DNA from: Nitrospirota bacterium
Lineage (GTDB): Bacteria; Nitrospirota; Nitrospiria; Nitrospirales; Nitrospiraceae
DNA length: 64,000 nt
Assembly: GCA_963729585.1 (NCBI GenBank)
Contig: CAVSOJ010000017.1
Span: 4-64,003, forward strand
Reading direction: 5' to 3'
In this document: piece after piece, positions 28,830 to 62,326 of the stretch
Position numbering within the stretch: position 1 is the first letter of the stretch
How the letters are laid out: every line of letters starts with the position of its first letter
Position numbers and translations under genes: made by a program
The notes under the pieces: model-generated
Database searches by the model: none
Seen by the model: only the letters and a program-made list of their open reading frames with translations
What the model was told of the DNA's origin: nothing

Positions 28830-28831
28830 GT

Positions 28832-42716: not shown

Positions 42717-42777
42717 ACAGGCCTCCTGACTCAGAAGGGTATACATGCCATGGTGTGACTGGATAATGAACTCTGGT

Positions 42778-43141: not shown

Positions 43142-43756
43142 TCACGCTGGACTGAAATTGCCAGGGTGGGTCAAGGTCTCTAGCTCCTTTAGTCTCCCAG
43201 TCCGCAAATCATAAACCCATCCGTGCAGGTGAGGTCCCTGCTCCCCCGACCAGGCTTTTCGCACAATGGCCGTCCGGGCGACATTCCTCAGTTGTGCGGT
43301 GACATTGAGTTCGACCATGCGGTCGAAGCGCTGCGCGGAGTCTGACATGCGGTCGAGTTCGTCCACGTGACTGCGGTAAATTGCCTTCACTTGCTCTAGC
43401 CATTGGTCGATGACCCCGCTGTCCTCATGGCGCATCGCATGTAAGACTCCGCCGCAATGATAATGCCCGCACACGATGATGTGCTGCACCTGGAGTACCT
43501 CTACCGCGTATTGCAGGACGCTCAGCACACTCAAATCGCTATCGGATACCTGATTTGCGATGTTCCGGTGCACGAACAGCTCACCCGGATCCGATCCGGT
43601 AATGTCTTCGGGTGGCACACGCGAATCGGAGCAACTGATCCACAGAAACCCTGGCTTCTGCCCGTGGGCCCCTTTTTGAAAGAAATCTCCGCGCAGAGCC
43701 AGCTTCTCCTTCACCCAAGCTTCATTCGACAGCAACAGCTTGACGTACGGGTCCAT
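43142..43756 (-). CDS. beta-class carbonic anhydrase
   Basis: CSDSRV and HYHCGG zinc-ligand motifs. Confidence 0.95.
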   Translation of the reverse strand: MDPYVKLLLSNEAWVKEKLALRGDFFQKGAHGQKPGFLWISCSDSRVPPEDITGSDPGELFVHRNIANQVSDSDLSVLSVLQYAVEVLQVQHIIVCGHYHCGGVLHAMRHEDSGVIDQWLEQVKAIYRSHVDELDRMSDSAQRFDRMVELNVTAQLRNVARTAIVRKAWSGEQGPHLHGWVYDLRTGRLKELETLTHPGNFSPA

Positions 43757-43760
43757 CGTG

Positions 43761-45976: not shown

Positions 45977-46111
45977 CATCCCGAAGGGACTGCGGAGGCG
46001 ATGTACCACAACCCCGTCCTGCTCGGCCTGCACAGCCTGCTGTTCCCTTCCTCGCAGGTGGTAGGCATCTTCGCAGTGCACCCCTTTCCTGATAATCTAA
46101 AGCTCATCGTC

Positions 46112-46777
46112 TTATCGATCGTGTATACGAAAATCAGCCGGTAATAACCGACGATAGGGTCCCGCCATTATGAAGCGAATCATTTTGTAGGGCTGAAACC
46201 CACACTGTGCATACACACGGCGGGACGGCTCATTTTCTGGCACGACACCCGTCACAGCTCGCTGAAAGCCTTTGGCGCCAAAGTACCGCATCATGTGCGC
46301 GCAGAGAGCGACCTGGATCGAGAGACCGCGAAAACCCGGCTCGGTGAATGATTCATAAAAATAGATGCTCTTGTTCGATAAGGGCATGACAAGTGACACA
46401 TAGGGGCACATGTTAATTCGATGGGGGGTCGCCCAGGCAACCGCAATCAGGCGGCCCTCGTAGCGTGCGGCAAAACAAGTATGACCGTGGCTGAAGCGGT
46501 TATGGATCAGCGACTCCTGTCCTTTGGGTTGCAGCTGGAGATACTCAGCCATGTGGGTGTCATCCAAACAGTCGATCGTCACGTCCACGCGAGGTAAGAT
46601 CATCGGCATCCGCCTGTCCAACCTTCGCTCCAGCAACAAAACTCGTCTGTACACAGTAGCCGCCAGAATCTTGAACCACACCTGTTCGAGCCGGTCTTTC
46701 CAAATTCTCACGGTAGCTCCACCTGCGACCCGACTGTTCGGCTTCGCTACTTTGTTAAAGGATTTCTGGTTTAGCAT
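46112..46777 (-). CDS. GNAT family N-acetyltransferase
   Basis: YFYESFTEPGFRGLSIQVAL..VVPENEPSRRVYAQCGFQP (GNAT motifs A/B). Overlaps the stop of the upstream gene. Confidence 0.75.
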   Translation of the reverse strand: MLNQKSFNKVAKPNSRVAGGATVRIWKDRLEQVWFKILAATVYRRVLLLERRLDRRMPMILPRVDVTIDCLDDTHMAEYLQLQPKGQESLIHNRFSHGHTCFAARYEGRLIAVAWATPHRINMCPYVSLVMPLSNKSIYFYESFTEPGFRGLSIQVALCAHMMRYFGAKGFQRAVTGVVPENEPSRRVYAQCGFQPYKMIRFIMAGPYRRLLPADFRIHDR

Positions 46778-48128
46778 GTATTCCGGGGAATCTTTGATAC
46801 ATGTCCTCAACGTCTTGCCGAGAGCTTCCCAAAAACACAAGATCGCACATCCCGTTGGCTAACCGCCCCGTGTTGTAGGGGATGACTCCATGCCCCGTAC
46901 AGGGATCGAAGAAAAACCCACTATGCATTTCTTGCAGTTCAGAAAAAGAGGCGGCCTTCGTTGTTATCTTGGCCGACAGAAAAGCCTTGATGAGAGGGTT
47001 CGAGCGTCCAGCCTGCAACGCGTTCAGACGCTCCATCAAAAATACCGGATAGGTTGCCGCATTTACTCTTGCGTTGATTTCGACAAAGATATGCTCGTAC
47101 GCCCCAGTCTCCGGATGAACATATTCGACGAAATCGAAGCCGGCCAAGCCGGTGAATCCTCTCGTCTGTAGCCACTGGGCAAGTTTCCTCGCCGAACAGA
47201 TCATGCCGGCCAGCGCCTTGGCATTCGACGGAAACACGTTGCCCTTATGCGAGAATTTCTTGTCCACGCGTTGATCAGTGGCGCCCACGCACCAAATTGC
47301 ACCGGTGTCAGGCTCCACAAACATCTGGACGTTCGGAGTCGCAACGATATCAAACATCACTTGCACGAGATAGATGTGATGAATTTGTTGCTCGACAAAT
47401 GTTCTTAATTTCCGCTCGATGTCCTCGGAAGCCCCCTCGGCAACGAATGTGCCTGATCCTGCAGCACCATATGTCCCCCTCACAATCACTCTTCCGGTGT
47501 GAGAAACATATCGCGCGATCACCTTTAGTAACGGAGTCACGTCGAAGCGGCTACAGTCAAAATGTGTGTGGAGATCGACAATCTCCCCTGGAGCCAGGGG
47601 GACAGCCAGTTCGTATGCCTTGGCATGAGCGAGATGTTTCAGGTTGGCACGCGCTACAATGTCGGCATTCCCGCCGAGGACACGGATCGGTTTGCCTAGT
47701 GCGTCCTCCAATACCGCCGCAAGATCAAATTCGGCAGACGATGCAAGGTAGGGATTCAGCACAACGCGGTTCCTGTCAGGAATCAGTTCGCGGATCGCAC
47801 GAAGCGGCTTTGCGTTGCGGAGAAGCATGCTCGCAAGTGTCCTGTCTGGGTCATCACCGAACTCAGCCTTGATTTCTATAATGCGATCGCCATTGGGACC
47901 AAGGCCTAGACTCGACAGATAGTCGACGTACCGACGATCAACGTTGCCTACGACACAGACTATGTCATCCGGTCTCGCGAGAATCAGCGCTCGTTGGTCG
48001 TAATGCTTGTACCCAGGGAGGTACGTCTCAAGGGCATTTCGTTGGACTAATGCAGTGATGTGGTGGGTAAAAATCTGAGTGACTTCCGTGTCCTCGAGTG
48101 TACGAAGGATAGATGTAATTTCGTCCAT
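46755..48128 (-). CDS. ATP-grasp ligase (pre-ATP-grasp + ATP-grasp, PGM1-like architecture)
   Basis: HIFVEINARVN (E-x-N-x-R Mg/ATP motif), GTYGAAGSGTF, 457 aa. The PGM1-like subtype is an inference. Confidence 0.8.
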   Translation of the reverse strand: MDEITSILRTLEDTEVTQIFTHHITALVQRNALETYLPGYKHYDQRALILARPDDIVCVVGNVDRRYVDYLSSLGLGPNGDRIIEIKAEFGDDPDRTLASMLLRNAKPLRAIRELIPDRNRVVLNPYLASSAEFDLAAVLEDALGKPIRVLGGNADIVARANLKHLAHAKAYELAVPLAPGEIVDLHTHFDCSRFDVTPLLKVIARYVSHTGRVIVRGTYGAAGSGTFVAEGASEDIERKLRTFVEQQIHHIYLVQVMFDIVATPNVQMFVEPDTGAIWCVGATDQRVDKKFSHKGNVFPSNAKALAGMICSARKLAQWLQTRGFTGLAGFDFVEYVHPETGAYEHIFVEINARVNAATYPVFLMERLNALQAGRSNPLIKAFLSAKITTKAASFSELQEMHSGFFFDPCTGHGVIPYNTGRLANGMCDLVFLGSSRQDVEDMYQRFPGIHAKPEIL

Positions 48129-48224
48129 TTGCGGTCACCTCGCCCACATGCGCCGACGATTATCGTTCCAGATAATAGGCCGTTGGTCCCCCGCACCTCT
48201 CAATTGAGCACCTCCGATTCAGGC

Positions 48225-48971
48225 CTATCGCTTTTTGGCTTTCATGAATAACAGCTCCCAATTCATGCGACACGCGTTTCTTTCGACGGAATAGCCCACG
48301 TGCTTTCGAATTCCCTCTACTACCTGGGCAGAGTCTGCTTTATCGACCCCGAACAACATTTGACAAAACCCTCCCATGGCCTGAGGGGAATCAAATTTCC
48401 AGTGAAACGGGATCAGCGGTGACTCCATGATCACAAACCCACATCCCGCGATCTCTTCTTGGATCTTGGCATGGATATAATTCCCTTTATGTCCCATAGT
48501 ATTGTGCTCGTTGACAAATCCGTCCAAGAATTCAGAGACTGTCGAGTGGGCTCGCACGTCAGCAATAGTGAACGTGCCTCCCTGTCTCAATATTCGATAG
48601 GCCTCGGAGAAGAACCGTTCCTTCTCATCGACATGGTGCAACGCGGCCAAGCTGATGACTTTATCCACGGAGCCGGTCTCGATAGGAATATCCTCCAATG
48701 TTGCCAGCAACACGTTGGACGCGCCATTATCCCGGCAGAGATCGGCAAACACCTCTGATGTTTCGATATGAATAAACGATGGGGTTCGATCGACAAAGTT
48801 TCTCAAATACCCACCGCCAGAGGGAACATCACAGACGATCTCTCCGTCTTTCATGTCGGCCATACGGACGACATGATGGAATTCCTCTGTTCGAGCCTGC
48901 GGGTACAGGGTCATCGCTTGATGATACAGATGACCCCTCTTTTGAAAGATATCGCGGTACGCTGGAAACAT
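48225..48971 (-). CDS. class I SAM-dependent methyltransferase
   Basis: VCDVPSGGGYL (motif I) and VDKVISLAALHH (Methyltransf_11-like). Confidence 0.9.
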   Translation of the reverse strand: MFPAYRDIFQKRGHLYHQAMTLYPQARTEEFHHVVRMADMKDGEIVCDVPSGGGYLRNFVDRTPSFIHIETSEVFADLCRDNGASNVLLATLEDIPIETGSVDKVISLAALHHVDEKERFFSEAYRILRQGGTFTIADVRAHSTVSEFLDGFVNEHNTMGHKGNYIHAKIQEEIAGCGFVIMESPLIPFHWKFDSPQAMGGFCQMLFGVDKADSAQVVEGIRKHVGYSVERNACRMNWELLFMKAKKR

Positions 48972-49019
48972 TGGTCACCTCGTGTCTTTCGTGCCCACGT
49001 CGCTCTCGCAATGAGATTC

Positions 49020-50397
49020 TTACATGCGATCATTGACCAAAGGAGGCTTCACCATTTGATCAGGCCACTCAAGTCCGTCATAAGCTGATCGAATGCGGGA
49101 TCGATAGACTCGAAATTTCCCGTTTGCGTCCATCGGGATTTCCGGTACGAGATCTACCCGGAACTGCACGTCCGGGCCGACCAACTCGACGACTGGTTGA
49201 ACCAACGCTGCCATCTCCTGGGTGGACGGTCTATGAAACGGGACCACTCTCATCACGATAGAATCCAAGCCCTCCTGGGTAACTTGAAACTCTCGAATCC
49301 AGGGAACCTTAATGATCCCGAGTTCATATGGATGGACAACCCTGTTGCCGGGAAGCACGAAATAGTCGATCATGCGTCCTTGGATCGATCGAATTGTCGA
49401 GAACGGTTGTCCGCATCGGCAGGTCGATTTCCCTTGGTCACCAGATCCCCGAGCCGATATCGGATCAACGGCATCGCAAACGAATGCAAATCGGTCCCGA
49501 CGACTTCCCCGCTCTCGCCTTCGTTGACAGGACGATCCCCTTGATAACTTCCAGAATCATCCCGTCATCGCAACAATGCAGATCACCCGTCCTCGCGCAC
49601 TGCCAGGCAAGAAGGTTAAATTCGCTACTTCCATAGGTGTCATAGACTGGCACGGAGAATCCGTCCTGAATCTGCTGACGCATGAGGGGAGTGAGTACTT
49701 CTCCGCCGGTACTCACAAAGCGTAGCCTGAGTAATCGCAGTTCATCGCTACTAACTGTCTGCGCGATTCTGGCCAACACGCCGGGATAGCCCGATACGAC
49801 AGCGGGCCTGAACTGGTGCAAAGCCCGAACAATCTCCTCGGGTGATAGTAGGCAGTTGACTACCATTTGCCGAGCAATCCCGAACGTGGCCAGGATGCGC
49901 TGGACTATTTGGTGATCCTGCGGTCGGTGACTCCGCAGTCCCATCACAATACAATGCTTGTCGCTCGCTCGGAGACCCAGCGACCGGAGCGCACGTAACC
50001 GGAACACCCCATGCAGGCGCTCCTCCAGCCAAGTCCGGCGCACGGTGAACGGCCTCCCGGATGACCCACTTGAAGCACGAGTGATTAGACATTCCGGATT
50101 CACATGTCGGGCGACTATCTCTTCGACCGGTAAACTTTGCAAATCACTCCTAGAAGTAATGGGCACGGCAGCAAGATCCTGGACCGCTCTGATGTCGTGG
50201 GGTTTCAGTTTATGTCGATCAAAGAGCTCGCGGTAATAGGCCACATTGCGATAGGCATGTTCGACTAACCGGCGAAGACGTTCATTTTGAAAGGCAACGA
50301 GCTGCTCCCGTCCGACATGCGGATGGCGCAGCATGGAATAGAGCGTCGATACAGGGTTGAGATGAGACATACTCGTCCCTTTCATGATGGGCGACAC
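49020..50397 (-). pseudogene. PaaK/coenzyme-F390-synthetase-like adenylate-forming ligase B (two frameshifts)
   Basis: YYRELFDRHKLKPHDI..LPITSRSDL, SSGSSGRPF, YPGVLARIA, YGSSEF. The middle segment [33 protein letters not shown] reads in a third frame. Breaks are at the C-runs 49537..49540 and 49431..49433. Confidence 0.8.
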
Positions 50398-52270
50398 CCT
50401 TGAACAAATAAGTCATCCCATAGTTGGACGCTGAGGACACCGAGCAACTCTTTTCCGAAATGCGCCTTGCCATGTTGATGCTGTTCAAGCATGTGTCGAA
50501 CATGCTGAGGATTGAAGTAGCCTTTCGTGTGAAGCCTGCTCTCGGACAAGGCGTCTTCGACAAATTCAGGCAGACGACGTTGCCATGGCCAGAATGGAGC
50601 GGAAAGGCCGCGCTTCCTGCGTTTCAGGATTTCCGTGGGTAAGACACCTTCCAGAGCCCGGCGGAGAATATGCTTTTCATGAAGCCCACGCATTTTCAGG
50701 TTGGGTGGAATCTGGCTGCACAATTCGACAAATTCATGATCGAGGAACGGCACACGTGCCTCCAGGCCATACGCCATGGAAGCAGCGTCCAGGGTTCTCG
50801 TGATGTAGTCCGAGAGGCGCGAATTGATTTCGAGGTACTGCAGTTGAGCAAAACGTCGCCATCGTTCAAAATCTTCAGGAAGACGGAGTTGTTGCTCTGT
50901 ATCGGTGAGAAGACTGTGGTTGTATCTGAGATGTTCGGAAAAGAGGTTATCGTGGCTCTTATCGGATGCGTTATCGATAATCCGTGTGTATCGGGCGAGG
51001 CCCATCTTGGCAGGAGCGGCGAATGCCCGGCTTGATCGAGACCATTTGTTCCTCAGGAACGGGATGCTTGCGATAAGGCGACGCAAACTGAGTGGAAGGT
51101 TGATGAACGGCTGAAGCAACCGTTCGACACGGTACCAATGATAGCCGCCAAAGATCTCATCCGATCCCTCACCGGTCAGGACAACTTTCACCTGCTGCGC
51201 AGCTAACTTGGCGAGCAACATATGGGGGATGCCCCCCGCTGAGAGGTTTGGATCTTCACGATGCCAAATTACTCTCGTTAACAGTTCGAAGTCGGCGGTC
51301 GTGCAGGTGGTGATGTGGTTGAGGAGATCGTAGCCTCCGTAGTCTGAGAGAATCTTGTTCGGACCTATCTCGTTGTAGAGTGGATCTTCAAATGCCACGG
51401 AGAAAGTCTGGACAGGGTCGGTACTCGTCGGCTCATCAATCCCGTCACTGCGCTTGAATCGATTCCACTGCTCAAATAGGAACCTAACGGCACATCGCTC
51501 CGGAGGTGGAGGCGAACGGACTCTTCGAGTTTGGCGCGCACTGCGTCGGCCCACTCCTGGGGGCTTCGTCGAGGGCCTTCCTCTCCGATCGAAGGGAAGC
51601 AGAGATCCCAGTAGCGCTGGATCGTGAGACAACCGCTTTCATAGAGAAGATAGTGTGCCGGCTGAAGCCGGCGAATTGTGCTCAAGAGGGTTTTGGGCGC
51701 TAAGACAAACCCGACCGCAAACAATTCCTTCATTGCACCGGGGTCAACCTGTCGTTCGATACAACCGCTGGCGAGAATGGCTTTGTACTCCGACCCAAAA
51801 AGCAAAGCGTCGGGAGTGGTTGCATAGCTCAATGGCTTGATGCCGAACCGATCTCTAGCCAACATGAGCCGTCGATGACGGGAATCCCAGATAGCGAAGC
51901 TGAACATACCTCTCAGGAAATCCACACAGCGCACCCCATGGTCCTCGTACAAGTGGACGATGACTTCGACATCCGAATTGGTCCTGAAACGATGGCCGGC
52001 GGCCTGTAGGTTTCGACGCAGTTCTTGGTAGTTGTAGATTTCTCCGTTGCACACAACCGTGATAGAGCCATCTTCATTGGAAATGGGTTGATCACCGGTT
52101 TGCAGGTCGATGATGCTCAGTCGGCGGAAACCAAGACCGATGCCTGGTTCAATAAAGTACCCATCTCCATCCGGTCCACGGTGAGTCATCATGTTCGTCA
52201 TGCGATGAAGCATATCCCGGTCAACCAGCCTCTTGGGATCTGAATACACAACGCCGCACAATCCGCACAT
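50382..52270 (-). CDS. asparagine synthase (glutamine-hydrolysing) family amidotransferase (frameshifted as assembled)
   Basis: MCGLCG N-terminal nucleophile. PP-loop SSGIDSS. ORFs 51365..52270 and 50382..51632 join near 51430..51440 (..AVTGLM / EPTSTDPVQTFSVAF). Confidence 0.9.
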
Positions 52271-52303
52271 AGTTACTCCTGCTCTCGGCTGTCCCTGTTC
52301 CTC

Positions 52304-53610
52304 TTAGCCAACGCTTGCTGAAATTCGTTCGGACCCGGCTCCATTTTTGAGGGCCTGCAAATCAAAGCCGGGACACAGCTGATCGCAGTGGTCACACACA
52401 ATCGTCTTGCCACAGTGTGTCTTCCAACACCCAATCTCGCCGAATTGGGCAAAACAGATTCGTGAAAGGTGGTCCGTTGCTCGTCCCCGCAAGAGCACGA
52501 GATCCCCATGGCGAAGTTCCGATTTCAGATGCTCAGCCGCCATCAACAGATTTGCAAAAGCATGCACCCTGTCAGGGTGCATGCCTGCTGCCACGGCGGC
52601 CCTGGCCGCATGATGCGCATGATCACTCACAAATATCGCCACGTCGGCCACGCGGGAGGCTGTTCGACCCAGTTCCTTATTCCGATCACGCGCCTTCAGT
52701 GATTTCTTAGGCCAATCAGAAACATCGCTCAGGACGAGCACCCGTCTTGCTGCTTGAGCATCTCCCAAGACTTTCACGGCTGCTTGCCAGGTAACGTATG
52801 AGCCATTCAATTCATCTCGTATCATCGTTGCGCCATTGGGCAATTTGATTGGCTGCATCCGTGCCGGATATGGCACCACATTGGCTACTGCGGCAGCGGC
52901 AGCTTTCAGTGGAACTCCGCAGGCCAGCGCCCCTGCAATCCCAGCCAGCACAGAATTGGCCCAATGCCGACCGACCAGTTTCGTCTTGATCCGCTCCACT
53001 TCAGACCTTGTGTGCACGCGAAGCGTCATGGTCTCAGGCCATGTCGAGGACACTTCATCCGCCCACAGATCCTGTCCAGCCGACAGTCCGAATGTTTTCA
53101 CCTGGCATCGACGACCTGAAGCCATCAATCGAACTCTTGAATCATCGGCGTTGAGGATCGCCAACCCATTCGGTAGTACCGCATCGAGGAGAGACGATTT
53201 CTCCGCTGCAATCTCTTCAAGAGATGAAAATACTTTCGTATGGCTTCTCGCGACCGTAAGGACGACAGCCACATGAGGACGCACCAATCGAGCCGATCTC
53301 TTAATCAAACCTGGCCCGTCCGTTCCCATCTCAATGACGGCGAAGCGGTGCCACGGTCGGACCCGCAACATCGTGCGAGGCACTCCGTGGCGATCGTTTT
53401 GATTGTTCAGTGTCGAGGCTGTGCTGAACTGAGTCGACAGAATCTCGGCCATGCATTCTTTCGCAGTGGTTTTTCCACACTGCCGGTGATGGCAATGAAT
53501 GTGGTGCGAAACAGCAGGCGCCGCCACAGATATGCCAACGCATAGAGGAGCCAAAGGCGGCATGACCAGAGAAGTGCACCCACATTGATAGCGCGCGATC
53601 GATAACTCAT
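52304..53610 (-). CDS. MurF-like Mur ligase family protein with N-terminal TM segment and C-terminal Cys cluster (frameshifted as assembled)
   Basis: The P-loop FIAITGSVGKTT is restored by adding one base at 53470..53477. VIEMGTDGPG, ILNADD. C-terminal CWKTHCGKTIVCDHCDQLC. Confidence 0.8.
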
Positions 53611-54778
53611 CTCGCACCTTGATAGGTTTGCTGGGAATCAGGCCCGGCTCCGATTATGTTCAAAGATGCTCCCTCATCCATCATCGGTTGGCGACCCGAC
53701 CCAGTAAGGAGGTAGAGCCGATGTAGTCCTCCAACCCAAAGAGATCGACAGTTCTGTGACTCGTCTGCATGGAGGGCGGACAAGCGTCCTTCGTCTCGAA
53801 AGATAAGGCCCGTGTGAGAGAGGAAGTCTTTCACCACGCCGTTCATGCCATTCCAACGGACTAACAGATCGTAGTACATGTCGGACCCGTCATAGAGAGT
53901 CATCCCCCATTTGCGTTTGTACCGCAGTAATCCGTCGTGCAGCGAAGGCCGGGCGCCTCTGAAATCAACCTCCGCGCAACTCAGCTCGCGTGCATGCGCA
54001 ATGCTGTAATAATAAAGCGCCGCCATTATGCCTCTCTTGTTCAGCGGAAGTTCACCCGAAGCCAGGCCCATTGCATGCAGGTCGAGCATGTCGTTTTCCG
54101 TTCAAAGAGGATGCCTGCAAGGGGATGAGAGCCCCCGCATGATCCAGAGGATGCCGCCGTTGCGGACACGACGTTGCAATTCATGCCGGCTCTGACGAAA
54201 GCCAGCGCTCCGTGACGGGCTTGCGAGAAGGGAACATACATGGAATCGTAGAACTCGTGAAACCGTTCTTCCCCTTCGGTAACCAACGGTTGTAACTTAT
54301 GCCTGCGAACCAAGCGCATGTCCTCGCGGATACTACGGTTGCCACGCACCAACGCATCGAGATCGTCAGGAACGGCAAGCCGCGTGCCGACCCATTCGGG
54401 AACCGCGAGATAGTCCTTTCCAAAAAATTTCTGCGCCGACAATCGGTCTGCACGGACTATGGTCAGATCGGCTGACTGTTGGAATCGATCCAAGAATTCA
54501 GGTAGTGCTCTTATTCCAAGCTGACCGAGGAATTCGCGCTTTGGTTCGCCGGAAAAAAACCGCCGAGGCAAATACTGGGCCCACGGCTCATGTCCAATGA
54601 GAAGGAGCCTGCCTGATTGACCAGTTCTGTGTGTCGGACCACGCAAAAAGACAGCCGGAACCTGCCGCAACCCGGACCAGTTCAGCAGGAAGAGTCCGTG
54701 CCGCGTCACAAATTCTCGCGTTCGGTCCGGCAGGCAGAAGGTGAGATGTTCTGCAAACCTATGGACAGGTTCGGTCAT
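53607..54778 (-). pseudogene. Fem/GNAT-fold transferase-like protein, paralogue B (three frameshifts)
   Basis: Collinear with 54759..55946 over its full length. Frame changes at 54185..54190, the C-run 54132..54136 and the T-run 54094..54097. The corrected reading GILWIMRGSHPLAGILFERKNDMLDLHAMG aligns gap-free with the paralogue. Confidence 0.65.
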
Positions 54779-55946
54779 CGTTCAGACCCATCACCCTTGC
54801 CGCTGGCTTCCATCCAGCATTTTGTGCTCTAGGGATCTCTCGATACCCCGCTTCGGTCAGGCGATACCATCGTCGAAGCCCGTCAACCCACAACTCATGT
54901 TCGTTCGGAAGCTCATTCCCGATGAGCGCGGAGAATCCTCCTTTGTCCCGAAAGATCAGCGGCGTGTGTGATACAAACTCCTTCACCACCTCGTTGACTT
55001 GATCCCATCGGACGAACAGATCGTGATAGCTGTCGGTCTTGTCGTACAAGGTAGCGCCCCATTTACTCTTGTACCGCAACACACCATCAGTGAGAGTTGA
55101 ACGGCTCCCTCTGAAATCTACCGTCTGGCAGCGGCGCATCCGTGCCAGCTCGATGATGAAATAGTAGAGCGCAGCGATCGCGCCTTCTTTCATGAGCCTA
55201 GGGTCTCCATCCAGTGACCCCACCGCAAGTACGTCGAGCGTGCCTTCTTTTTCTTCAAATAGGAGCGCCGCAACACGCTGTTTGTCTCGGCGCACCCACA
55301 GAATCCCGCCGCGTCGAACCCGGTGCCGGAAGTCGTGAGCCGGCCGTACCACCAGCAATTCTCCATATCGAGCCTTCGACAACGGCAGATAGAAGGTGTG
55401 ATAGAACAAATCAAAATCCTCATCGCCAGGTGAAACAACAGGTTCATACTTATGCCGGCGAACCCGCCTCATATCCCTTTGAATGTTGCTGCTGCTTCGC
55501 ACCAAGACATCCAGGTTGTCCGGAACTGTAAGCCTTGTGCCTACCCATTCGGGTACTGCGAGATAGTCACCGCGGAAAATGGTGTGTCCCGACATGCGAT
55601 CGACACGAGCGATTGTCAAATCAGTCGACTTTTGAAACCGGGCCAAGAATCGCGGTAAAGACCGGACCGTTACCCGACCAAGTAGTTCGTGCCTTGACTC
55701 ACCAGCGAAGAACCGCTGTGGGAGATACTGCACCCAAGGATCATCTCCGGCTACGAGAAGCCGACCGACTTGGCCGGTCTTGCTCGTCGGACCATGCCAT
55801 AACGTCACGGGTACTTTCCGTAGCCCGAATCGGCTGAACAGAAAGAGCCCATCGCGGGTCAGCACCTCATGGGCCCGGTCGGGTAGCCGAGAGACGAGAT
55901 GGTCAGTGAGCTGCCGTATCGACCCGTTCATTATCGGATACTCCAC
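54759..55946 (-). CDS. Fem/GNAT-fold (Acetyltransf_6 / FemAB / MprF-C-like) transferase, paralogue A
   Basis: 395 aa. EGAIAALYYFIIELARMRRCQTVDFRGSRSTLTDGVLRYKSKWGA resembles the C-terminal GNAT lobe of Fem-type transferases. The family call is tentative. Confidence 0.6.
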   Translation of the reverse strand: MEYPIMNGSIRQLTDHLVSRLPDRAHEVLTRDGLFLFSRFGLRKVPVTLWHGPTSKTGQVGRLLVAGDDPWVQYLPQRFFAGESRHELLGRVTVRSLPRFLARFQKSTDLTIARVDRMSGHTIFRGDYLAVPEWVGTRLTVPDNLDVLVRSSSNIQRDMRRVRRHKYEPVVSPGDEDFDLFYHTFYLPLSKARYGELLVVRPAHDFRHRVRRGGILWVRRDKQRVAALLFEEKEGTLDVLAVGSLDGDPRLMKEGAIAALYYFIIELARMRRCQTVDFRGSRSTLTDGVLRYKSKWGATLYDKTDSYHDLFVRWDQVNEVVKEFVSHTPLIFRDKGGFSALIGNELPNEHELWVDGLRRWYRLTEAGYREIPRAQNAGWKPAARVMGLNDDRTCP

Positions 55947-56015
55947 ATGACATCGTTCCCAATACTGCTATCGGTCAGAGATACCAACCACGAGACTCCC
56001 GCGAATCAGGGACGG

Positions 56016-57194
56016 TCAGCGCAGGTGCGGCATGGAACACACCCTTTGCGCGATAAGATCGCCTGCCACACGATGGCCCTCGGCATTCCAATGGCCATCT
56101 CCAATCGTCGCATTCGAGAAACCATGCAAGAACACCTGGTGTTCTTCTGCATACGTAGCCGACGGCTGGACGAGACTCAACACGGCAGTGTCATGCCGTT
56201 CCGCCCACGACACGATGCGTCTATCTGGATAAAGCAGATCCTGCACTCCCAACTTTGCTGCGAGCTCTTGTCGATGCCGAGGATCCGGATGAACCTGATC
56301 CGGGTTGCTTAAGATGACCAGCAGGAACTCCGCGCCTTTCTCTCTTACCTCATCACGCATCTGAGCGATCAGCTTCTCAGTCACCTCCCATGCTTCTGTC
56401 CAGAGCCGTTCTTGCGGCTCAAGGTATTCCATTTGATCGAGTCCAATCACCGATCCAACCGCCCCAGACACCTTGTTTCGGTGATTCAGATCCGCAACAT
56501 ACGCTTGGATCTTGTATTCCGCCTCTCTCAAGACTTGCAGAACGCGCACATGCTCAAATACCTTTTGACTGAATTCGAGGTTTCGAACATAGAACGCAAG
56601 CGAATCGCGGAACGACGCATCCAGGATCAAGCGACCGTCTCTCTCTATGAAGTATGGCCGCGTCGAGTCGTTCTGTAAGACACGGGAGTTGTTCCGAATA
56701 TCGTTACCGGTGAGGAATGCAAGGATCACGAGATCAGGAGAGTATTCCCACCCCTTATGCCGCAACATCAATAATTCTTGGGCAGTGCCATAGCCCGACA
56801 CACCAAAATTCAGCACTTCAATTTGGCGGCCTGCCAAAGACCGACACCGCTGGAGGTCTTGTTCCAAGAGCGCCCAATAAGTCTGTCCGACGGGAACTTG
56901 TAGCGCTTCTGAATACGAGTCTCCGAGGATGGCGATTCGAAACGTGCCAGGCGATTTCTCTTTCTTGTGCTCACGATCTCGGAAACCTGCACTGTTGATT
57001 CGAATATAGGTGAGACCTTCTTTTTTCCACCATCCTTCAGCGTTCGGCTTAGGGGCATAGCCGACGATAGGATCAGCGATGTAGTAGTAGGGATAGGAAA
57101 TGCCGGCAAGCCTCAGACCCCCCTCCAGAATCAAGAGTCCAATAAGCCCCCCCGCGAACATCAACAAGAGATTGCCAACCCAGCGTCTGCCCAT
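56016..57194 (-). CDS. membrane-anchored SGNH/GDSL-like protein
   Basis: N-terminal TM segment. Block I ILGDSYS, block II NFGVSGYG, block III GNDI, block V DGHWN. Confidence 0.75.
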   Translation of the reverse strand: MGRRWVGNLLLMFAGGLIGLLILEGGLRLAGISYPYYYIADPIVGYAPKPNAEGWWKKEGLTYIRINSAGFRDREHKKEKSPGTFRIAILGDSYSEALQVPVGQTYWALLEQDLQRCRSLAGRQIEVLNFGVSGYGTAQELLMLRHKGWEYSPDLVILAFLTGNDIRNNSRVLQNDSTRPYFIERDGRLILDASFRDSLAFYVRNLEFSQKVFEHVRVLQVLREAEYKIQAYVADLNHRNKVSGAVGSVIGLDQMEYLEPQERLWTEAWEVTEKLIAQMRDEVREKGAEFLLVILSNPDQVHPDPRHRQELAAKLGVQDLLYPDRRIVSWAERHDTAVLSLVQPSATYAEEHQVFLHGFSNATIGDGHWNAEGHRVAGDLIAQRVCSMPHLR

Positions 57195-57263
57195 GATCTA
57201 TCCGCCAAAGATGAAGTCACTATTTCTTATTTCATTCGCAGAGAGGTTTCAGCGCCTCGCCGA

Positions 57264-58589
57264 TCATATCGACACACCCTGCTTGCACTTCGACATAACA
57301 GGCCTGAATTTGCCGGATGCCTCGGGCTCCAACGCCGTATAGTATTCGCACTCGATCACGGCGGACTCTCCAAGCAGTCGGCGCAAGTCAGCAAGAATGT
57401 CTCCGACGACCAGCCGATACGATTGATAATCCACCGTGACAAGCCTCAGCTCAAATCGCTCCGGCTTATGTTGGATAAGCTGGTATTTCATCACTTCGTT
57501 CCTCTGGCTCAACACCGCCCAAACCGCCCGAGGATGAACAAACCCTCCGTTAGAACGAAAGAGAATATCCTCTACTCTGCCTTCAAGCTCAGAAAGCAGA
57601 GGCAAGACGCGGCCACACGAGCACTTGCCAGTCGCTAAGGACGCGACATCCCCGAGACGATAGTTGAGAAGGACAGTTCCTCTGTTGACGAGATTAGAAA
57701 TCACCACCTGCCCTCTGCCTCCGGCCGGGACATCCTCGCCATTCGCGTTCATGATTCTTACATGACAGAGATCATCATGGAGATGAAAACCATGCCGAGC
57801 TTCGCAAAGAAAGCCGATCTTGAAAGCTTCTACCGCGTTGTACATTGAGAGGACTGGTACGCCGAACTCCTTCTCAATAAGCGCCTTTCCTGGATCGGTC
57901 ATACATTCCGCTCCATAGAACAGTACCCGTGGGAGATGCATCTGGGTTCCCTTGAACTTGAGGGTCTTGAAGAGCGCCTCCAAATAGGAGCCATAGCCGA
58001 CCAGGATGTCAGGCCGAAAGGAATTGATCGCGTCGACGATCTGCTCGATGGGCTGCAAGACATCTAAAAGCAGGCGTGGCCTGGAAGAAGAAGCAAACGT
58101 GTGCTTTCGATAATATTCCCAGACTTTGTTGATCGTGGACCTGGGCCGCACGATGTAAGCCTCTCTGAGCCCAAACCTTTTACCACACATAGTGAGAGAA
58201 CAGGTCTTTCCCGTTTCCCGTACGCGATGTTGGCGAGAAGCGAGTCGTGATCATGGTGAATCGTGGAGGGCTCGCCAGTGAAACCGCTCTGTCGGAAACG
58301 CGATGGAGTTCTTCCCTCGCCTCGATGTAGAGATAAAGAGGCTTGGGTTCTTACGGACTGTAGGCTTCTCCACTAAGGGAATAAGGCGAAGGTCATGGAC
58401 CGTTTTGATGCTCCGCGGATCAATACCTTCCTTTCGAAAGAGATTCTGGTAATAGGGGACTGTGTCTGCTGCGTATTTGACGATCTGTCTGAGCCTCGCA
58501 TCGCGAAGAGCCCACAACTCCTCTTCGGGTAGATAAGGAATACCTTTCTGGCCACGCAAGTTCGCACAAACCATGCCACTTCCGTGCAC
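57264..58589 (-). pseudogene. PaaK/coenzyme-F390-synthetase-like ligase A (two compensating frameshifts)
   Basis: ORFs 58251..58589 and 57264..58190 are in the same frame. The ~95 nt between them reads SGFTGEPSTIHHDHDSLLANIAYGKRERPVLS (adenylation motif) in another frame. Breaks are near 58286..58294 and 58183..58198, in AG and TG dinucleotide contexts. Confidence 0.8.
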
Positions 58590-58605
58590 CTTGTTGAGAA
58601 AATCT

Positions 58606-59481
58606 CTAATGATCGCGCGCCACGCACGGATGAATCTGCCTCTTCTCAGCTCGGACGGCGATAAAGTGCCCGGTCAGATACCGCGTTGGCCATTGCGACA
58701 TTCTTTCGAATGTCTGTAGCCAGCGCAAAAAATGTCGTTGTGCGGGAAGCTTCGCGCGTGAGCATAAGAGCTTTGCGACGAGTACGGCGATCATGCGCGG
58801 GCAGTGCAGCACCGTCGTGACATCCCTCACTTCGAAGCCTACCTCCCGCAGCAACTTCTGTAACCGCCAGGGACCGCACGTGGCGCCGACAAAGTAGGGC
58901 ACGATACCCAACCGGTTCAACAGTTTGAACGGAAGATGGTTGCGAACCGCAATGGTCGGATTCGCCAGATTATCCAGAGTCACGATGAGCTGCCCGTCCT
59001 TGCGAAGCACTCGGTGCAATTCCCGCAAACTCACAGTGATCTCCTCCAGCGTCCGGAAATGATCCAGCGTGGAATTCGACACCACAACATCGAACGACTC
59101 CCGTCGGAACGGCAGATCGCGTACATCTGCACAGGCTCCACGAGCGCTCACCTCGCCACGACAAGCCAATTGTACGTTCTTGAATGACAGATCCATCCCG
59201 ACGACACTGTGGGCGCGGGCCTGCAGGAATCGAGTGAGGCCCTCTCCCACCGCTTCATCAAACGTATCGGTCTTTAGCAACCGAGGAACTGGCTGTTCGG
59301 GAAGCCAACGAAAGAGAAGGGATTGATTGATCGCGTCACTATGTTTTCGCCAGAGCCGATCCGGGCGGGTCTTTTTCCATTCGTCCGCAATGGATTCCCA
59401 GTAGCTCGTCTCCTCAACCATCACTATGTAGCCTCCCCATCTAAACAATGGCAGTGTAGGGCGTTTAGGTCTTGCCCACAA
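58606..59481 (-). CDS. class I SAM-dependent methyltransferase
   Basis: VVGMDLS, DLPFRRESFDVVVSNSTLDHF, LRKDGQLIV (Methyltransf_11/25-like). The start may be Met 59421. Confidence 0.85.
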   Translation of the reverse strand: MWARPKRPTLPLFRWGGYIVMVEETSYWESIADEWKKTRPDRLWRKHSDAINQSLLFRWLPEQPVPRLLKTDTFDEAVGEGLTRFLQARAHSVVGMDLSFKNVQLACRGEVSARGACADVRDLPFRRESFDVVVSNSTLDHFRTLEEITVSLRELHRVLRKDGQLIVTLDNLANPTIAVRNHLPFKLLNRLGIVPYFVGATCGPWRLQKLLREVGFEVRDVTTVLHCPRMIAVLVAKLLCSRAKLPAQRHFLRWLQTFERMSQWPTRYLTGHFIAVRAEKRQIHPCVARDH

Positions 59482-59659
59482 TACCTCGCCGCTAGAGCAA
59501 GGCCCTACAGAAGAGGGGTGACTGCCCTCACCGCGTTATTTGGCATGGCCCATTGGAAACCGCATGGGATGGGATTTCCGCAATGTGTTACCAACTGAAT
59601 CAAGAGCCTGGTGGGAGGGTTGGGGAAAGAAGAACAATCAGAACTTTTCAGCCGAGAGA

Positions 59660-60005
59660 TCAGCGTGGCCGGTCGTGCGCATCACTATTGCGCAGCGAGT
59701 GATGTCTTCGATCCATCATTGCCAGGCACAGGAGCCCGATCCCGATCCAAGCCAGTTCGCGGAACCGCCGCAGCAACGCGAAGGTGATGCCGGTGACGTC
59801 GGAATAACCAAAGGCTCTCAGCAAGGCCAAATTCCCTCCGTCTTGGGCGCCGAGGCTGCCGGTAACCAAAGTGGACAAAGGACATGGCAGAAACAAGGTC
59901 TAAGCCTCCAGCGAAGACCTGCATTACGGTACGGAGAGCAATCCTGTGACCTGTCGGCGTTGTGATGGCTGTCTCGCGAGGACGACCTGCACGGAGCAGG
60001 GGCAT
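59660..60005 (-). pseudogene. UPF0104 / lysyl-PG-synthase-TM (flippase-like) C-terminal fragment
   Basis: LVTGSLGAQDGGNLALLRAFGYSDVTGITFALLRRFRELAWIGIGLL matches the family C-terminus (PGGxGxxE...R). The upstream part is in another frame, and the first ~200 codons are absent. Confidence 0.4.
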
Positions 60006-60191
60006 CCTGCCAAGCGCAGCGGCCGTCCATTTTTCTCCTTACTAGGGTTGGGCCACTAAGCCAACCGCGGCCGACTCGTGCCAGTACGTTGGGTCAAGAA
60101 CCCCTGTGTGAGTGCATCAACCAATGTGGTGAAAACAAAAGACTTTCTCTGGAGGCAAGATAGGATTCACAAACAACTGGTTTTGAGTTTG

Positions 60192-61977: not shown

Positions 61978-62050
61978 CGTTCCAGTCCCTCGATAGCCGG
62001 TCTTGATCGTGAAATGGCGAGGTATGTTCAATCAGGTTCCTGGCCACTCA

Positions 62051-62326
62051 CTATTTGCATGTAATGGCCAAATATTCTTCCGGCGAAGGGATACCGCCTT
62101 TCTCTGTCACCACGAGCGTCGAAGACGCAGCGTCGATCGTGTCGTAACCATTCGGACACAATTCCGCGGCTTTTCTCTGACATTGATCGAGCGACCGTCC
62201 CAAGCCGCTACATTCCATCGAATAGGCTGGTTTCCCGTGTGGTCCCTCAAACGGTTTAGGCTCGACAGAGAGGCAAGAGGCAAGGGACAGCAGCAGGGCA
62301 ACCAGATAGAGTCTTTGCACGCTCAT
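62051..62326 (-). CDS. small Cys-rich lipoprotein
   Basis: Met 62326. Lipobox LSLASC. Four further Cys residues. Confidence 0.5.
   Translation of the reverse strand: MSVQRLYLVALLLSLASCLSVEPKPFEGPHGKPAYSMECSGLGRSLDQCQRKAAELCPNGYDTIDAASSTLVVTEKGGIPSPEEYLAITCK

Follow-up and report, generated by a model that had tools for sequence, protein, structure and literature searches.

In the genetically validated exopolysaccharide (EPS)/biofilm locus of Rubrivivax, genes for FemAB-like, AsnB/WbpS and CapK proteins co-occur (PMC3684757), and in C. jejuni an ATP-grasp enzyme amidates the capsule glucuronate (PMC11800379). The activation of 2-aminoethylphosphonate (AEP) to CMP-AEP is a precedent for cell-surface phosphonates (PMC6697681). 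The locus described here lies in the window, a 64,000-nucleotide stretch of a Nitrospirota contig, probably of a Nitrospira genome, and is a real, conserved and uncharacterised set of eleven genes encoding amide-bond-forming enzymes. An earlier note on this DNA could name no described pathway with this combination; three of the families together in Rubrivivax come close to contradicting its reading, but no such locus is known to have a defined decoration chemistry.

Gene layout and protein families

The eleven genes are co-directional on the minus strand (46112-59481), with intergenic spacing of -23 to +96 nt and overlaps of 20 nt (54759/54778), 4 nt (53607/53610), 16 nt (50382/50397) and 23 nt (46755/46777). 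The ORF layout and the domain calls reproduced the gene count, family assignments and overlaps given in the earlier note, including its five ATP-dependent C-N ligases from four superfamilies, which are accompanied by two tandem-GNAT, Fem-fold paralogues. As had also been stated, no NRPS, PKS, glycosyltransferase, carrier or transporter gene is present within the 13.4 kb block, and none of its intergenic gaps is big enough to hide a carrier-protein gene. The features, in the direction of transcription, are the following:

59660..59899, minus strand: remnant (3' end only) of a gene for a flippase-like LPG_synthase_TM/HpnL-type membrane protein (tblastn)
58606..59481, minus strand: SAM-dependent methyltransferase MT-a, intact (Methyltransf_11, 62 bits)
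57264..58589, minus strand: PaaK/CapK-type adenylate-forming ligase A (CapK-A), frame-broken (SGFTGEP in the shifted stretch)
56016..57194, minus strand: SGNH hydrolase/acyltransferase with an N-terminal transmembrane helix, intact (AF2 and Foldseek)
54759..55946, minus strand: Fem-fold tandem-GNAT transferase 1 (Fem1), intact (AF2, pLDDT 90, and Foldseek)
53607..54778, minus strand: Fem-fold tandem-GNAT transferase 2 (Fem2), frame-broken (paralogy to Fem1)
52304..53610, minus strand: MurF-like Mur ligase lacking the MurF N-terminal substrate-binding domain, frame-broken (Mur_ligase_M, 117 bits; Mur_ligase_C, 37 bits)
50382..52270, minus strand: AsnB-type glutamine amidotransferase, frame-broken (GATase_7 and Asn_synthase; Cys2 nucleophile, PP-loop SGIDSS)
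49020..50397, minus strand: PaaK/CapK-type adenylate-forming ligase B (CapK-B), frame-broken (SGSSGRP)
48225..48971, minus strand: SAM-dependent methyltransferase MT-b, intact (Methyltransf_11, 55 bits)
46755..48128, minus strand: ATP-grasp amino-acid/peptide ligase with a pre-ATP-grasp domain, intact (PF18604 and ATP-grasp_3)
46112..46777, minus strand: GNAT N-acyltransferase, intact (Acetyltransf_1, 38.6 bits)

All motifs named earlier are present (SGFTGEP at 58288, ILNADD at 53158, MCGLCG at 52270, SGIDSS at 51469, SGSSGRP at 50070, EINAR at 47081), but GSVGKTT of the MurF-like protein is readable only after frame correction, because a 1-nt indel in the P-loop, near 53473, separates GSV from GKTT. 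The probable start of the GNAT gene is the ATG at 46777, and the long ORF aligns with the related locus L064 from its residue 32 onward.

No Pfam model matched Fem1 or Fem2, and the sole NCBIfam match of Fem1 was the PEP-CTERM FemAB model TIGR03019 (E=3.5e-4). The Fem-like call stands on the fold: the best PDB matches of the AF2 model of Fem1 are aminoacyl-tRNA-dependent transferases, with Sbb17/Sba18, FemX and A-PGS/L-PGS/MprF at the top of the Foldseek list, the TM-scores to Fem/MprF structures being modest (0.31-0.51). In the alignment to S. aureus FemX, the YKxKWG motif of Fem1 falls on FKKVWG. It speaks against aminoacyl transfer that acyl-CoA users such as VipF and Eis, found further down this list, share the tandem-GNAT fold. 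The PGM1-like call for the ATP-grasp enzyme holds through PF18604 (36.6 bits, cut-off 27.5) and the match of the family profile to BesA (8yi6, 1.3e-10); ATP-grasp_3 scored 24.1 bits (cut-off 23.2), and the profile matched an ATP-grasp peptide ligase (8ynd) at 1e-8 and PGM1 at only 0.25.

For the two PaaK/F390/CapK-type enzymes every NCBIfam score was sub-threshold; PaaK 4r1l is the nearest solved structure to the orthologues of both, and the CapK-B orthologue also matched AjiA1 and NatL2-like PaaK ligases. The MurF-like protein scored 194 bits with TIGR01143, under the cut-off of 289, and its alignment with solved MurF structures begins at MurF residue ~109. The top NCBIfam match of the AsnB-type protein was TIGR03108, the XrtA/PEP-CTERM amidotransferase (335+182 bits, cut-off 817), and that of MT-a was the DVU_1556 family, sub-threshold. 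The SGNH protein had a sub-threshold Pfam score, and its fold was confirmed by the AF2 model (pLDDT 91) and by Foldseek matches to CgnD, acetyl-xylan esterases and TesA; S93, G134, N164 and H368 are invariant. Of the two membrane anchors proposed earlier, that of the SGNH protein is borne out by a clear transmembrane helix (residues 2-30, 19-residue hydropathy maximum 2.13), whereas that of the MurF-like protein is doubtful, its N-terminus being weakly hydrophobic (maximum 1.0-1.6). The SGNH domain probably faces outward, as read from the N-terminal Arg-Arg before the helix and not from a topology computation.

Related loci and the truncated upstream end

Over 20 independent loci from metagenomes and genomes contain the gene set in shuffled order, and dN/dS values of 0.16-0.41 overall (0.16-0.36 against L064, 0.2-0.4 against L005) indicate purifying selection. 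Therefore, the cluster is more than a chance assembly of genes. Among the 37 Fem-like loci of at least 8 kb, CapK was found in 23, glycan-type genes in 18, AsnB in 17, the ATP-grasp enzyme in 10 and the MurF-like ligase in nine. The locus L064 is colinear with the window and reads PpdN-PpdC-AEPT-NTP transferase-CDP-OH_P_transf-LPG_TM-MTa-Fem-MurF-like-AsnB-CapK-MTb-ATP-grasp-GNAT-GT2. Its shared genes, except Fem, are 81-92% identical at the amino-acid level (MT-a 91%, dN/dS 0.26; MT-b 92%, dN/dS 0.21), and its single Fem gene matches Fem2 of the window with 65% identity in the N-terminal and 87% in the C-terminal part.

In L064, L001, L004 and L009 the flippase-like gene is intact and is preceded by genes for phosphonopyruvate decarboxylase, 2-aminoethylphosphonate transaminase, a nucleotidyltransferase and a CDP-alcohol phosphotransferase. 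The AepZ/PhnW model scored 349 bits (cut-off 361) and the two Ppyr-DeCO2ase halves 132+188 bits; the sulfopyruvate decarboxylase model scores nearly as well for this split TPP enzyme, and the nucleotidyltransferase and the CDP-alcohol phosphotransferase resemble IPCT/DIPPS. A PEP mutase, fused to a nucleotidyltransferase, was seen only in L004. The neighbours in L010 are GT2, Wzx, DegT and GFO. L001 and L009 have GT2, amine oxidase, PMT_2 and epimerase, L043 has GT2 and ABC-2/ABC_tran, and L029 a lipid-A-type acyltransferase. With two Fem-like genes but no adenylating ligase, L001 and L009 must draw the donor from primary metabolism.

The upstream fragment of an MprF-type flippase noted earlier is real. 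Its homology (59696-59869) covers ~58 codons, corresponding to residues 269-326 of homologues of 330-337 aa, with 76-78% identity to the intact ones; in-frame stops lie upstream at 59900-59902. The intact L064 homologue is above the TIGR00374 cut-off and scores 159 bits with the HpnL subfamily. The nucleotide homology of the window with L064 ends at 59862, inside this gene, and because the locus is cut there, it lacks the scaffold genes; no gene of the phosphonate, glycosyltransferase or export type was found in the window. The earlier statement that there is no recognisable scaffold, carrier or export gene is thus true of the truncated copy, not of the system, since related loci carry such genes.

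Probable envelope decoration and competing explanations

The best reading of these gene sets is that the eleven genes are probably the distal tailoring part of a larger envelope locus, present in Nitrospira-type and other environmental bacteria. With moderate confidence, the cluster may be described as a module that decorates an envelope lipid or glycan with a short, amide-linked amino-acid or peptide unit. Such a target is the most likely one because the related sets adjoin phosphonate, membrane and sugar-transfer genes, and of the two products suggested earlier it is the lipid or envelope polymer decorated with amino acids that agrees with this synteny. In complete loci, the upstream genes would make AEP, activate it by the nucleotidyltransferase and transfer it by the CDP-alcohol phosphotransferase, alongside a flippase-like protein of the MprF-TM/HpnL type; past the module there are glycosyltransferase genes. 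The acceptor would be a membrane-associated envelope precursor, and since the module directly follows these genes, an amine-bearing AEP head group on a lipid or glycolipid is favoured, a sugar of a lipid-linked glycan being the alternative. The AEP link may also reflect an independent, neighbouring decoration, because the phosphonate module is present in only 4 of the 37 longer loci and PEP mutase in one.

The two Fem-fold enzymes would begin by adding amino acids to the free amine, probably from aminoacyl-tRNA. Further amide bonds would then be formed by the MurF-like ligase through acyl-phosphate chemistry, the BesA/PGM1-like ATP-grasp enzyme and the two adenylating ligases, after which the AsnB-type enzyme could convert a leftover carboxylate to a carboxamide. 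The methyltransferases and the GNAT would cap this side chain, and the membrane-anchored SGNH enzyme would remodel it, probably at the outer face.

The module might instead link amino acids to uronic-acid carboxylates of an EPS or capsule glycan and amidate others, in the manner of EPS loci of the PEP-CTERM type; the phosphonate genes of some relatives would then be a separate neighbouring decoration. This is fairly unlikely, even though TIGR03108 and the PEP-CTERM FemAB model are the best models for AsnB and Fem1, FemAB, AsnB(WbpS) and CapK occur together in the Rubrivivax psc1 locus, and the neighbours include GT2, Wzx, ABC-2, epimerase and DegT. Most ligase-rich loci also have no phosphonate genes in the fetched flanks, a TupA-like ATP-grasp adjoins a distant Fem-like gene (L079), and the capsule GlcA of C. 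jejuni is amidated by an ATP-grasp. However, the NCBIfam scores are far under the cut-offs (517 against 817 bits for AsnB), no exosortase/PEP-CTERM gene was seen in the Pfam-annotated loci, and in L064, L001, L004 and L009 the flippase-like gene belonging to the phosphonate block is followed at once by the module, the glycosyltransferases coming only after it. Moreover, uronic acids supply no amine acceptor, which Fem-type enzymes need.

A diffusible pseudopeptide, the other product suggested earlier, or in complete loci a phosphonopeptide antibiotic with the GNAT as self-resistance, is quite improbable, and envelope decoration is more likely than a free product. Fem-type transferases and a methyltransferase act in dehydrophos biosynthesis, Sbb17/Sba18 are antibiotic-pathway aminoacyl-tRNA peptide synthases, BesA is a dipeptide-forming natural-product enzyme, natural-product PaaK-like ligases were matched (AjiA1, 6siw), and the GNAT weakly matches phosphinothricin N-acetyltransferase (E=7e-4). 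In contrast, the relatives encode the CDP-alcohol phosphotransferase, flippase-like protein, anchored SGNH enzyme, GT2, Wzx, ABC-2 and PMT_2, all of them characteristic of membrane and envelope assembly; exporters of the MFS or efflux type are not consistently linked, and c-di-GMP and PilZ genes, typical for surface polymers, flank the locus in L001, L004 and L013.

Frame breaks in the assembly

Nine single-base indels break five of the eleven genes, and the function of the block in the window's strain is therefore only putative. They comprise +1 at 58290 and -1 at 58193 in CapK-A, three 1-nt indels in Fem2 (~54193, ~54132, ~54093), the P-loop indel of the MurF-like gene, one in AsnB (near 51419) and two in CapK-B (near 49500-49528 and 49424-49436). 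L005, at 99.0% identity, has an intact Fem2 of 390 aa, and CapK-A is intact in L014 (98.8% nucleotide identity); both CapK-A indels are also absent from L013. Because all five comparable indels are missing from these ~99%-identical independent assemblies (L005, L014) and the dN/dS values are low, the nine are probably assembly errors. That the block is a non-functional relic, severed from its scaffold genes and promoter and decaying to pseudogenes, is very unlikely: the truncated upstream gene, the indels and the lack of a detectable sigma-70-like promoter upstream of MT-a are set against the intact copies, the purifying selection and split ORFs beyond the cluster, such as the RR-PAS gene at 60192-61735, which point to assembly error. 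The same truncated arrangement is retained in L013, a 95% identical strain, so the arrangement has persisted.

The eleven-gene block and its enzymes

The eleven minus-strand genes between 46112 and 59481 are separated by spacings of -23 to +96 nt. A check of the open reading frames reproduced exactly the four gene overlaps quoted in the earlier note. None of the gaps (largest +96 nt) leaves room for a hidden carrier-protein gene. Most of the domain calls made there from the sequence were confirmed by Pfam and NCBIfam profile searches, while the SGNH and Fem-like proteins needed structure prediction. For the 13.4 kb of the block, it was also correct to count five enzymes, belonging to four superfamilies, that form C-N bonds at the expense of ATP, along with two possible aminoacyl transferases, and to find no NRPS, PKS, glycosyltransferase, ACP or transporter gene. 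Every enzyme is assigned at the superfamily level, and the equivalog level is reached only for the generic asparagine-synthase model TIGR01536.

Genes of the block, with the basis of assignment
58606-59481, minus: MT-a, class-I methyltransferase (Pfam/NCBIfam)
57264-58589, minus: CapK-A, PaaK/CapK-type ligase A, SGFTGEP (fragments joined)
56016-57194, minus: SGNH protein (AF2 and Foldseek fold)
54759-55946, minus: Fem1, tandem-GNAT, Fem-fold protein (AF2 and Foldseek fold)
53607-54778, minus: Fem2, paralogue of Fem1 (fragments joined)
52304-53610, minus: MurF-like ligase, Mur_ligase_M and Mur_ligase_C (fragments joined)
50382-52270, minus: AsnB homologue, GATase_7 and Asn_synthase (fragments joined)
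49020-50397, minus: CapK-B, PaaK/CapK-type ligase B, SGSSGRP (fragments joined)
48225-48971, minus: MT-b, class-I methyltransferase (Pfam/NCBIfam)
46755-48128, minus: ATP-grasp ligase, PreAtp-grasp and ATP-grasp_3
46112-46777, minus: GNAT protein (Pfam/NCBIfam)

All quoted motifs are present, with the reservation that GSVGKTT of the MurF-like ligase is read in the window only as GSV and GKTT, split by a 1-nt indel; in the orthologues this P-loop is intact. The MurF-like protein matches Mur_ligase_M (116.8 bits) and Mur_ligase_C (37.4 bits) in Pfam and scores 193.8 bits against TIGR01143, under the cut-off of 288.6. Its alignment with solved MurF structures starts from MurF residue ~109 and only ~45 residues precede the P-loop; the protein lacks the N-terminal nucleotide-substrate-binding domain. 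A membrane anchor in this protein was rejected, as its hydropathy is borderline and drops in distant orthologues, and the segment was taken as an ordinary pre-P-loop helix. The AsnB homologue (GATase_7, 161 bits; Asn_synthase, 249 bits) carries MCGLCG from residue 1 as well as SGIDSS, and has both the Ntn domain with the N-terminal Cys nucleophile and the PP-loop synthetase domain. Its N-terminal fragment alone reaches 302 bits against TIGR01536 (cut-off 267), and the two fragments score 335 and 182 bits against TIGR03108, the XrtA/PEP-CTERM amidotransferase model, the cut-off of which is 816.9.

Both PaaK/CapK ligases contain the ANL-type core motif SGxxGxP, their orthologues match PaaK crystal structures at E 1e-26 to 1e-28, and Pfam CapK_C is annotated on the orthologues. 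With NCBIfam scores of 35-83 bits against cut-offs of 300-700, they are not equivalogs of phenylacetate-CoA ligase or F390 synthetase. In the ATP-grasp protein, a pre-ATP-grasp domain (PF18604, 36.6 bits, cut-off 27.5) is followed by an ATP-grasp domain (PF02655, 24.1 bits, cut-off 23.2). The family profile detects BesA (8yi6) at E 1.3e-10, the ATP-grasp peptide ligase 8ynd at 1.1e-8, and PGM1 (3wvq) at only 0.25. Exact-sequence look-ups of the window's ATP-grasp, of P0331 and of P0060 gave no match. The SGNH protein is under the Pfam cut-off (27.3 against 32.9); its AF2 model (pLDDT 91) combines an SGNH fold with a transmembrane helix at the N-terminus. Foldseek matches the model to CgnD, AXE and TesA (E 1e-8 to 1e-6), and the Ser-Gly-Asn-His catalytic set S93, G134, N164 and H368 is invariant.

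The AF2 model of Fem1 (pLDDT 90) has a tandem GNAT fold. Its top Foldseek PDB matches are Sbb17/Sba18, FemX, A-PGS/L-PGS and full-length MprF (E 1e-9 to 1e-5, TM-scores 0.31-0.51), all of them aminoacyl-tRNA-dependent transferases. At E<=0.01, neither Fem1 nor the two Fem2 fragments match any Pfam family, FemAB and LPG_synthase_C included, which sets them apart from FemX and MprF. The sole NCBIfam match of the Fem-like proteins is TIGR03019 (PEP-CTERM FemAB), with 19.7 bits against a cut-off of 260 (E=3.5e-4). Y292-K293-x-K295-W296-G297 is invariant in the family; YKxKWG aligns weakly (E=0.027) with FKKVWG of S. aureus FemX, a candidate for the Fem motif being conserved here as [FY]K-x-K-[VW]G. 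The Lys of the C-terminal Fem motif [FY]-K-x-x-[FW]-G would be the catalytic one. The family is widespread and unnamed and has no Pfam model; the profile search returned ~2,600 clusters at 50% identity, ~1,060 of them at E<=1e-30. A scan of GTDB genomes with Fem1 gave one distant (36%) Prosthecobacter locus with none of the other block genes. Because the closest folds all belong to tRNA-dependent enzymes, and because the homologous loci L001 and L009 each encode two Fem-like proteins but have no adenylating enzyme in the vicinity, aminoacyl-tRNA is favoured as the putative donor.

An anti-phage defence reading was rejected, since PADLOC gave no hit for the five block proteins tested. The promoter and terminator scan of the block yielded nothing informative.

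Related loci and a predicted envelope role

The homologues bear the organism names Nitrospira sp., Candidatus Nitrospira neomarina and Nitrospirales, and Nitrospira is the probable source of the window. In several of the related loci, the module is joined to genes for phosphonopyruvate decarboxylase (Ppd), 2-aminoethylphosphonate (AEP) transaminase (AEPT) and LPG_synthase_TM (LPG_TM), a flippase-like membrane protein of the MprF-TM/HpnL type.

Gene content of related loci
L001, L009: Ppd-AEPT-NTP transferase-CDP-OH_P_transf-LPG_TM-SGNH-MT-Fem-Fem-GT2-amine oxidase-...-PMT_2-GT2-epimerase
L004: additionally a PEP mutase-nucleotidyltransferase fusion, three CapK and the start of a fourth, ATP-grasp, AsnB
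L064 (236-kb metagenomic contig): PpdN-PpdC-AEP transaminase-nucleotidyltransferase-CDP-alcohol phosphotransferase-LPG_TM, then directly MTa-Fem-MurF-like-AsnB-CapK-MTb-ATP-grasp-GNAT-GT2
L010: module between GT2/Wzx/GT2 genes and DegT
L007: module between GT2/epimerase/phosphodiesterase genes and an Asp/Asn hydroxylase
L043 (7-9239): three MurF-like genes, then GT2 and an ABC-2/ABC_tran pair
L029: genes for an acyl-AMP ligase and a lipid-A-type acyltransferase at the start

Co-occurrence was counted over 37 loci, each at least 8 kb long and with a Fem-like gene. CapK-type ligases are encoded in 23 of the 37, AsnB in 17, ATP-grasp in 10 and MurF-like proteins in 9; glycan-type genes occur in 18 and the phosphonate block in 4. 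Ligase content varies strongly among related loci such as L043, L029 and L079, which suggests a family of different decorations. In L029, a formyltransferase (6996-7766) lies between the two Fem-like genes. PEP mutase (Ppm) was seen in L004 only, the one locus that unites it with Ppd, AEPT and a nucleotidyltransferase; Ppd, AEPT and the NTP transferase are found together in L001, L009 and L064, and none of the four genes is present in the 64-kb window. By NCBIfam, the transaminase scores 349 bits with the AepZ/PhnW model (cut-off 361) and the Ppd halves 132 and 188 bits, sulfopyruvate decarboxylase models scoring nearly as high. The relatives' nucleotidyltransferase and CDP-alcohol phosphotransferase resemble the IPCT/DIPPS pair, and the intact flippase-like protein falls into the HpnL subfamily of 'flippase-like domain' proteins.

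The locus probably belongs among envelope-polymer or lipid tailoring loci, and the window holds a truncated copy of it in an error-prone assembly. The folds of the enzymes, their linkage, their conservation under selection and the truncation are shown directly. Beyond this we infer, with somewhat better than even confidence, that the module is a tailoring unit which makes an envelope-bound, amide-linked decoration on a membrane-associated precursor. AEP is known to be CMP-activated for surface decoration (PMC6697681), and in the complete loci the precursor plausibly bears AEP. The CDP-alcohol phosphotransferase would place AEP onto a lipid or glycolipid hydroxyl and leave a free amine, which the Fem-fold enzymes could acylate with amino acids, aminoacyl-tRNA being the favoured donor. 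The MurF-like ligase might then add an amino acid or dipeptide to the carboxylate of the chain, and the ATP-grasp enzyme, related to the dipeptide-forming BesA, may either make that dipeptide or ligate directly. Further acids would be activated as adenylates by the PaaK/CapK enzymes, a remaining carboxylate amidated by the AsnB homologue, the product capped by MT-a, MT-b and the GNAT protein, and finally remodelled at the outer face by the transmembrane-anchored SGNH enzyme.

By analogy, this logic parallels the synthesis of the peptidoglycan stem and cross-bridge, where Mur ligases, ATP-grasp ligases, tRNA-dependent Fem transferases and amidation act on a membrane-linked precursor (background in PMC2922099). 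Four enzyme logics are common to both: the Mur acyl-phosphate ligase, the ATP-grasp ligase, the Fem-type transferases and glutamine-dependent amidation. However, the MurF-like protein is below the MurF cut-off and lacks a counterpart of the UDP-MurNAc-binding N-terminal domain, the ATP-grasp is BesA/PGM1-like rather than Ddl-like, the amidotransferase is of the AsnB type and not MurT/GatD, and the PaaK-type ligases have no counterpart in peptidoglycan assembly. The comparison with MprF concerns gene arrangement as well as fold. Since the MprF-type transmembrane gene of the relatives lies directly upstream of the module, their arrangement looks like a split MprF. In contrast to MprF itself, separate genes encode the transmembrane and transferase parts, the latter in two or three paralogues; of the transmembrane gene, 58 codons are left in the window. 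As a further difference, four kinds of ATP-dependent ligases accompany the transferases here, the use of aminoacyl-tRNA by which is putative.

The CMP-AEP (PntC) surface pathways share Ppd, an AepZ/PhnW-type transaminase and a nucleotidyltransferase with L001, L004, L009 and L064, and L004 has the Ppm-nucleotidyltransferase fusion in addition. Clusters for phosphonoglycans and phosphonolipids have been described with the same layout (Rice et al. 2019, PMC6697681). The transferase there is of the LicD type, whereas here it is a CDP-alcohol phosphotransferase of the IPCT/DIPPS type followed by a multi-ligase module; ATP-grasp and MprF are not mentioned in PMC6697681, and the window is missing the entire phosphonate block. 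More speculatively, and in our judgement rather doubtfully, the complete locus could make a peptidyl-AEP lipid, the window representing its peptide-building half. In that version, the CDP-alcohol phosphotransferase would install AEP as the lipid head group, the split MprF (flippase-like protein and stand-alone Fem-fold transferases) would aminoacylate the AEP nitrogen from aminoacyl-tRNA, and the domain-reduced MurF-like, ATP-grasp and PaaK-type ligases would build a peptidoglycan-stem-like surface peptide, amidated and methylated.

Alternatively, the module could amidate the uronic acids of an EPS or capsule, the phosphonate genes being unrelated neighbours, which we regard as unlikely. The best NCBIfam models of AsnB and Fem1 are of the PEP-CTERM type, and transposon mutagenesis in Rubrivivax gelatinosus showed that psc1, a locus with FemAB-related, AsnB/WbpS and CapK genes, is required for a biofilm polysaccharide (PMC3684757). 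Moreover, an ATP-grasp enzyme amidates capsule GlcA in C. jejuni (PMC11800379), and in L079 (9072-10004) a TupA-like ATP-grasp directly adjoins a distant Fem-like gene. However, the PEP-CTERM-type scores are well under their cut-offs, the window and the Pfam-annotated relatives have no exosortase gene, and the module is tightly joined to the flippase-like gene. Although the three families FemAB-like, AsnB and CapK are common to PEP-CTERM/exosortase EPS loci, Wza/Wzc and GT1 genes are absent here, and the MurF-like protein, the pre-ATP-grasp ligase, the SGNH protein and two methyltransferases are found here only.

A diffusible pseudopeptide or phosphonopeptide is improbable as the product. The dapdiamide (DdaG/H/F), pacidamycin (PacB) and pheganomycin (PGM1) pathways also use stand-alone ATP-grasp, adenylating and AsnB-like enzymes or Fem-type transferases, Fem1 resembles Sbb17/Sba18, and the ATP-grasp, related to BesA, has the PGM1-type pre-ATP-grasp domain, PGM1 itself being marginal. 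Against this, the gene context is one of membrane and envelope biosynthesis, not of a secondary-metabolite cluster, and pathway-specific precursor genes are missing.

Nitrospira are key nitrifiers, and to our knowledge little of their envelope chemistry has been described. The cluster family combines almost every known ribosome-independent route to the amide bond, and its complete form physically couples the module to phosphonate activation and a flippase-like protein, which is unusual and testable. If the product were a peptide-decorated phosphonolipid or glycan, it would be a new type of surface molecule, and a peptidyl-AEP lipid would add a new class to the bacterial envelope lipids. A peptide-decorated phosphonolipid or glycan would also give a function to the Fem-fold family and partly explain the 'cell-surface phosphonate' capacity known from genomics. 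In the literature covered, which was incomplete, no report of the gene combination, of Nitrospira phosphonate or of an envelope-peptide pathway was found, and nothing usable for DVU1551-1556 or HpnL.

Truncation and interrupted frames

The flippase-like gene is truncated in the window. Tblastn with the neighbours of the homologues showed that, of an LPG_synthase_TM protein of 330-337 aa, no more than residues ~269-326 are encoded, at 59696-59869 within the remnant at 59660-59899 (minus). Immediately upstream the frame is closed by stops, beyond which an unrelated response-regulator/PAS (RR-PAS) gene follows. L064 8552-9848 corresponds to window 59862-58568 (86.8% nt identity) and L064 10303-18648 to window 54476-46083 (89.3%), and the common genes except the single Fem of L064 are 81-92% identical at the aa level. 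Relative to L064, the window has thus lost the flippase-like gene up to codon ~270 with all that lies 5' of it, and has a CapK-A/SGNH/Fem1 segment in addition, inserted between MT-a and Fem2. The remainder of the window is ordinary chromosomal content, free of glycosyltransferase, flippase, exosortase and phosphonate genes. The headline of the earlier note, a cluster with no recognisable scaffold, therefore describes the copy in the window, and the comparison with L064 explains this scaffold-less look by truncation.

The same truncated block (window 60185-46010) is present in the 95%-identical L013, and the truncation therefore predates the split between the two. The flanks differ on both sides, but mobility of 46010-60185 as an island was not established, and no direct or inverted repeats occur at the ends of the block. 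In L013, an Hpt/hybrid histidine-kinase block (20708-21173) borders on the cluster at its GNAT end; in the window, this block lies at 18576-20665 and is turned round relative to the cluster. A ~27-kb inversion of window 18576-46009 relative to L013, with one breakpoint at the cluster end, would fit this arrangement and account for the downstream flank difference; inverted repeats are absent from its breakpoints. Just upstream of the cluster in L013, after purM/purN, lie genes for a serine recombinase, a Rep_trans protein and an HTH_17 excisionase-like protein (1597-4520). They are absent in the window and are possibly an integrative element adjoining the block.

Five genes of the block are frame-interrupted in the window.

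Indels in the block genes
CapK-A: +1 at 58290 and -1 at 58193, the shifted stretch containing SGFTGEP
Fem2: three, at ~54193, ~54132 and ~54093
MurF-like: one, at ~53473, inside the P-loop
AsnB: one, at ~51419
CapK-B: two, at ~49510 and ~49430

In independent, near-identical assemblies, Fem2 is intact with 390 aa (L005, GCA_041481975.1, 99.0% nt identity) and so is CapK-A (L014, 98.8%); both CapK-A indels are absent from the noisy sequence of L013 too. On these alignments the frame disruptions are most likely assembly errors, the clean assemblies overlapping CapK-A and Fem2 only. That the block is a decaying relic in the window's strain, as the truncated flippase-like gene and the five broken frames might indicate, is quite improbable, given dN/dS values of 0.16-0.36 against L064 and 0.2-0.4 against L005, the absence of the indels from ~99%-identical assemblies where they overlap, and the truncated block shared with L013. 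Overlapping same-strand ORF pairs also occur outside the block at 1425-2817, 9460-10867, 28398-29878 and 60192-61735, the last being the RR-PAS gene split into 60605-61735 and 60192-61016, which points to an indel-rich assembly for the entire window.

Other features of the window

A c-di-GMP/two-component block at 18019-21730 comprises a PilZ-like ORF, a hybrid histidine kinase (18914-20665) and a response-regulator diguanylate cyclase (20726-21730), and may regulate the envelope locus. The PilZ-like ORF is 24-30% identical to the PilZ genes that border L001 and L004 on the phosphonate side. The last part of the window (62001-64000) has a GC content of 0.477, compared with 0.52-0.58 elsewhere, and for the 326-aa ORF at 62870-63850 Pfam gives no significant family. 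Within 41806-45332, a PEBP-family gene (41806-42315) adjoins an avidin-family gene (42312-42746), near which a beta-carbonic anhydrase (43142-43795) and a SulP/STAS transporter (43761-45332) are encoded. The only RNA gene found in the window with Rfam is a tRNA-Pro (CGG) at 34217-34293. Intact homologues of the flippase-like gene (L064 7741-8733) score as the hopanoid-associated HpnL subfamily, and a hopanoid connection of this gene is possible. A squalene/phytoene synthase gene, SQS_PSY (28832-29878), is located together with a DUF6159 gene at 28832-30770.
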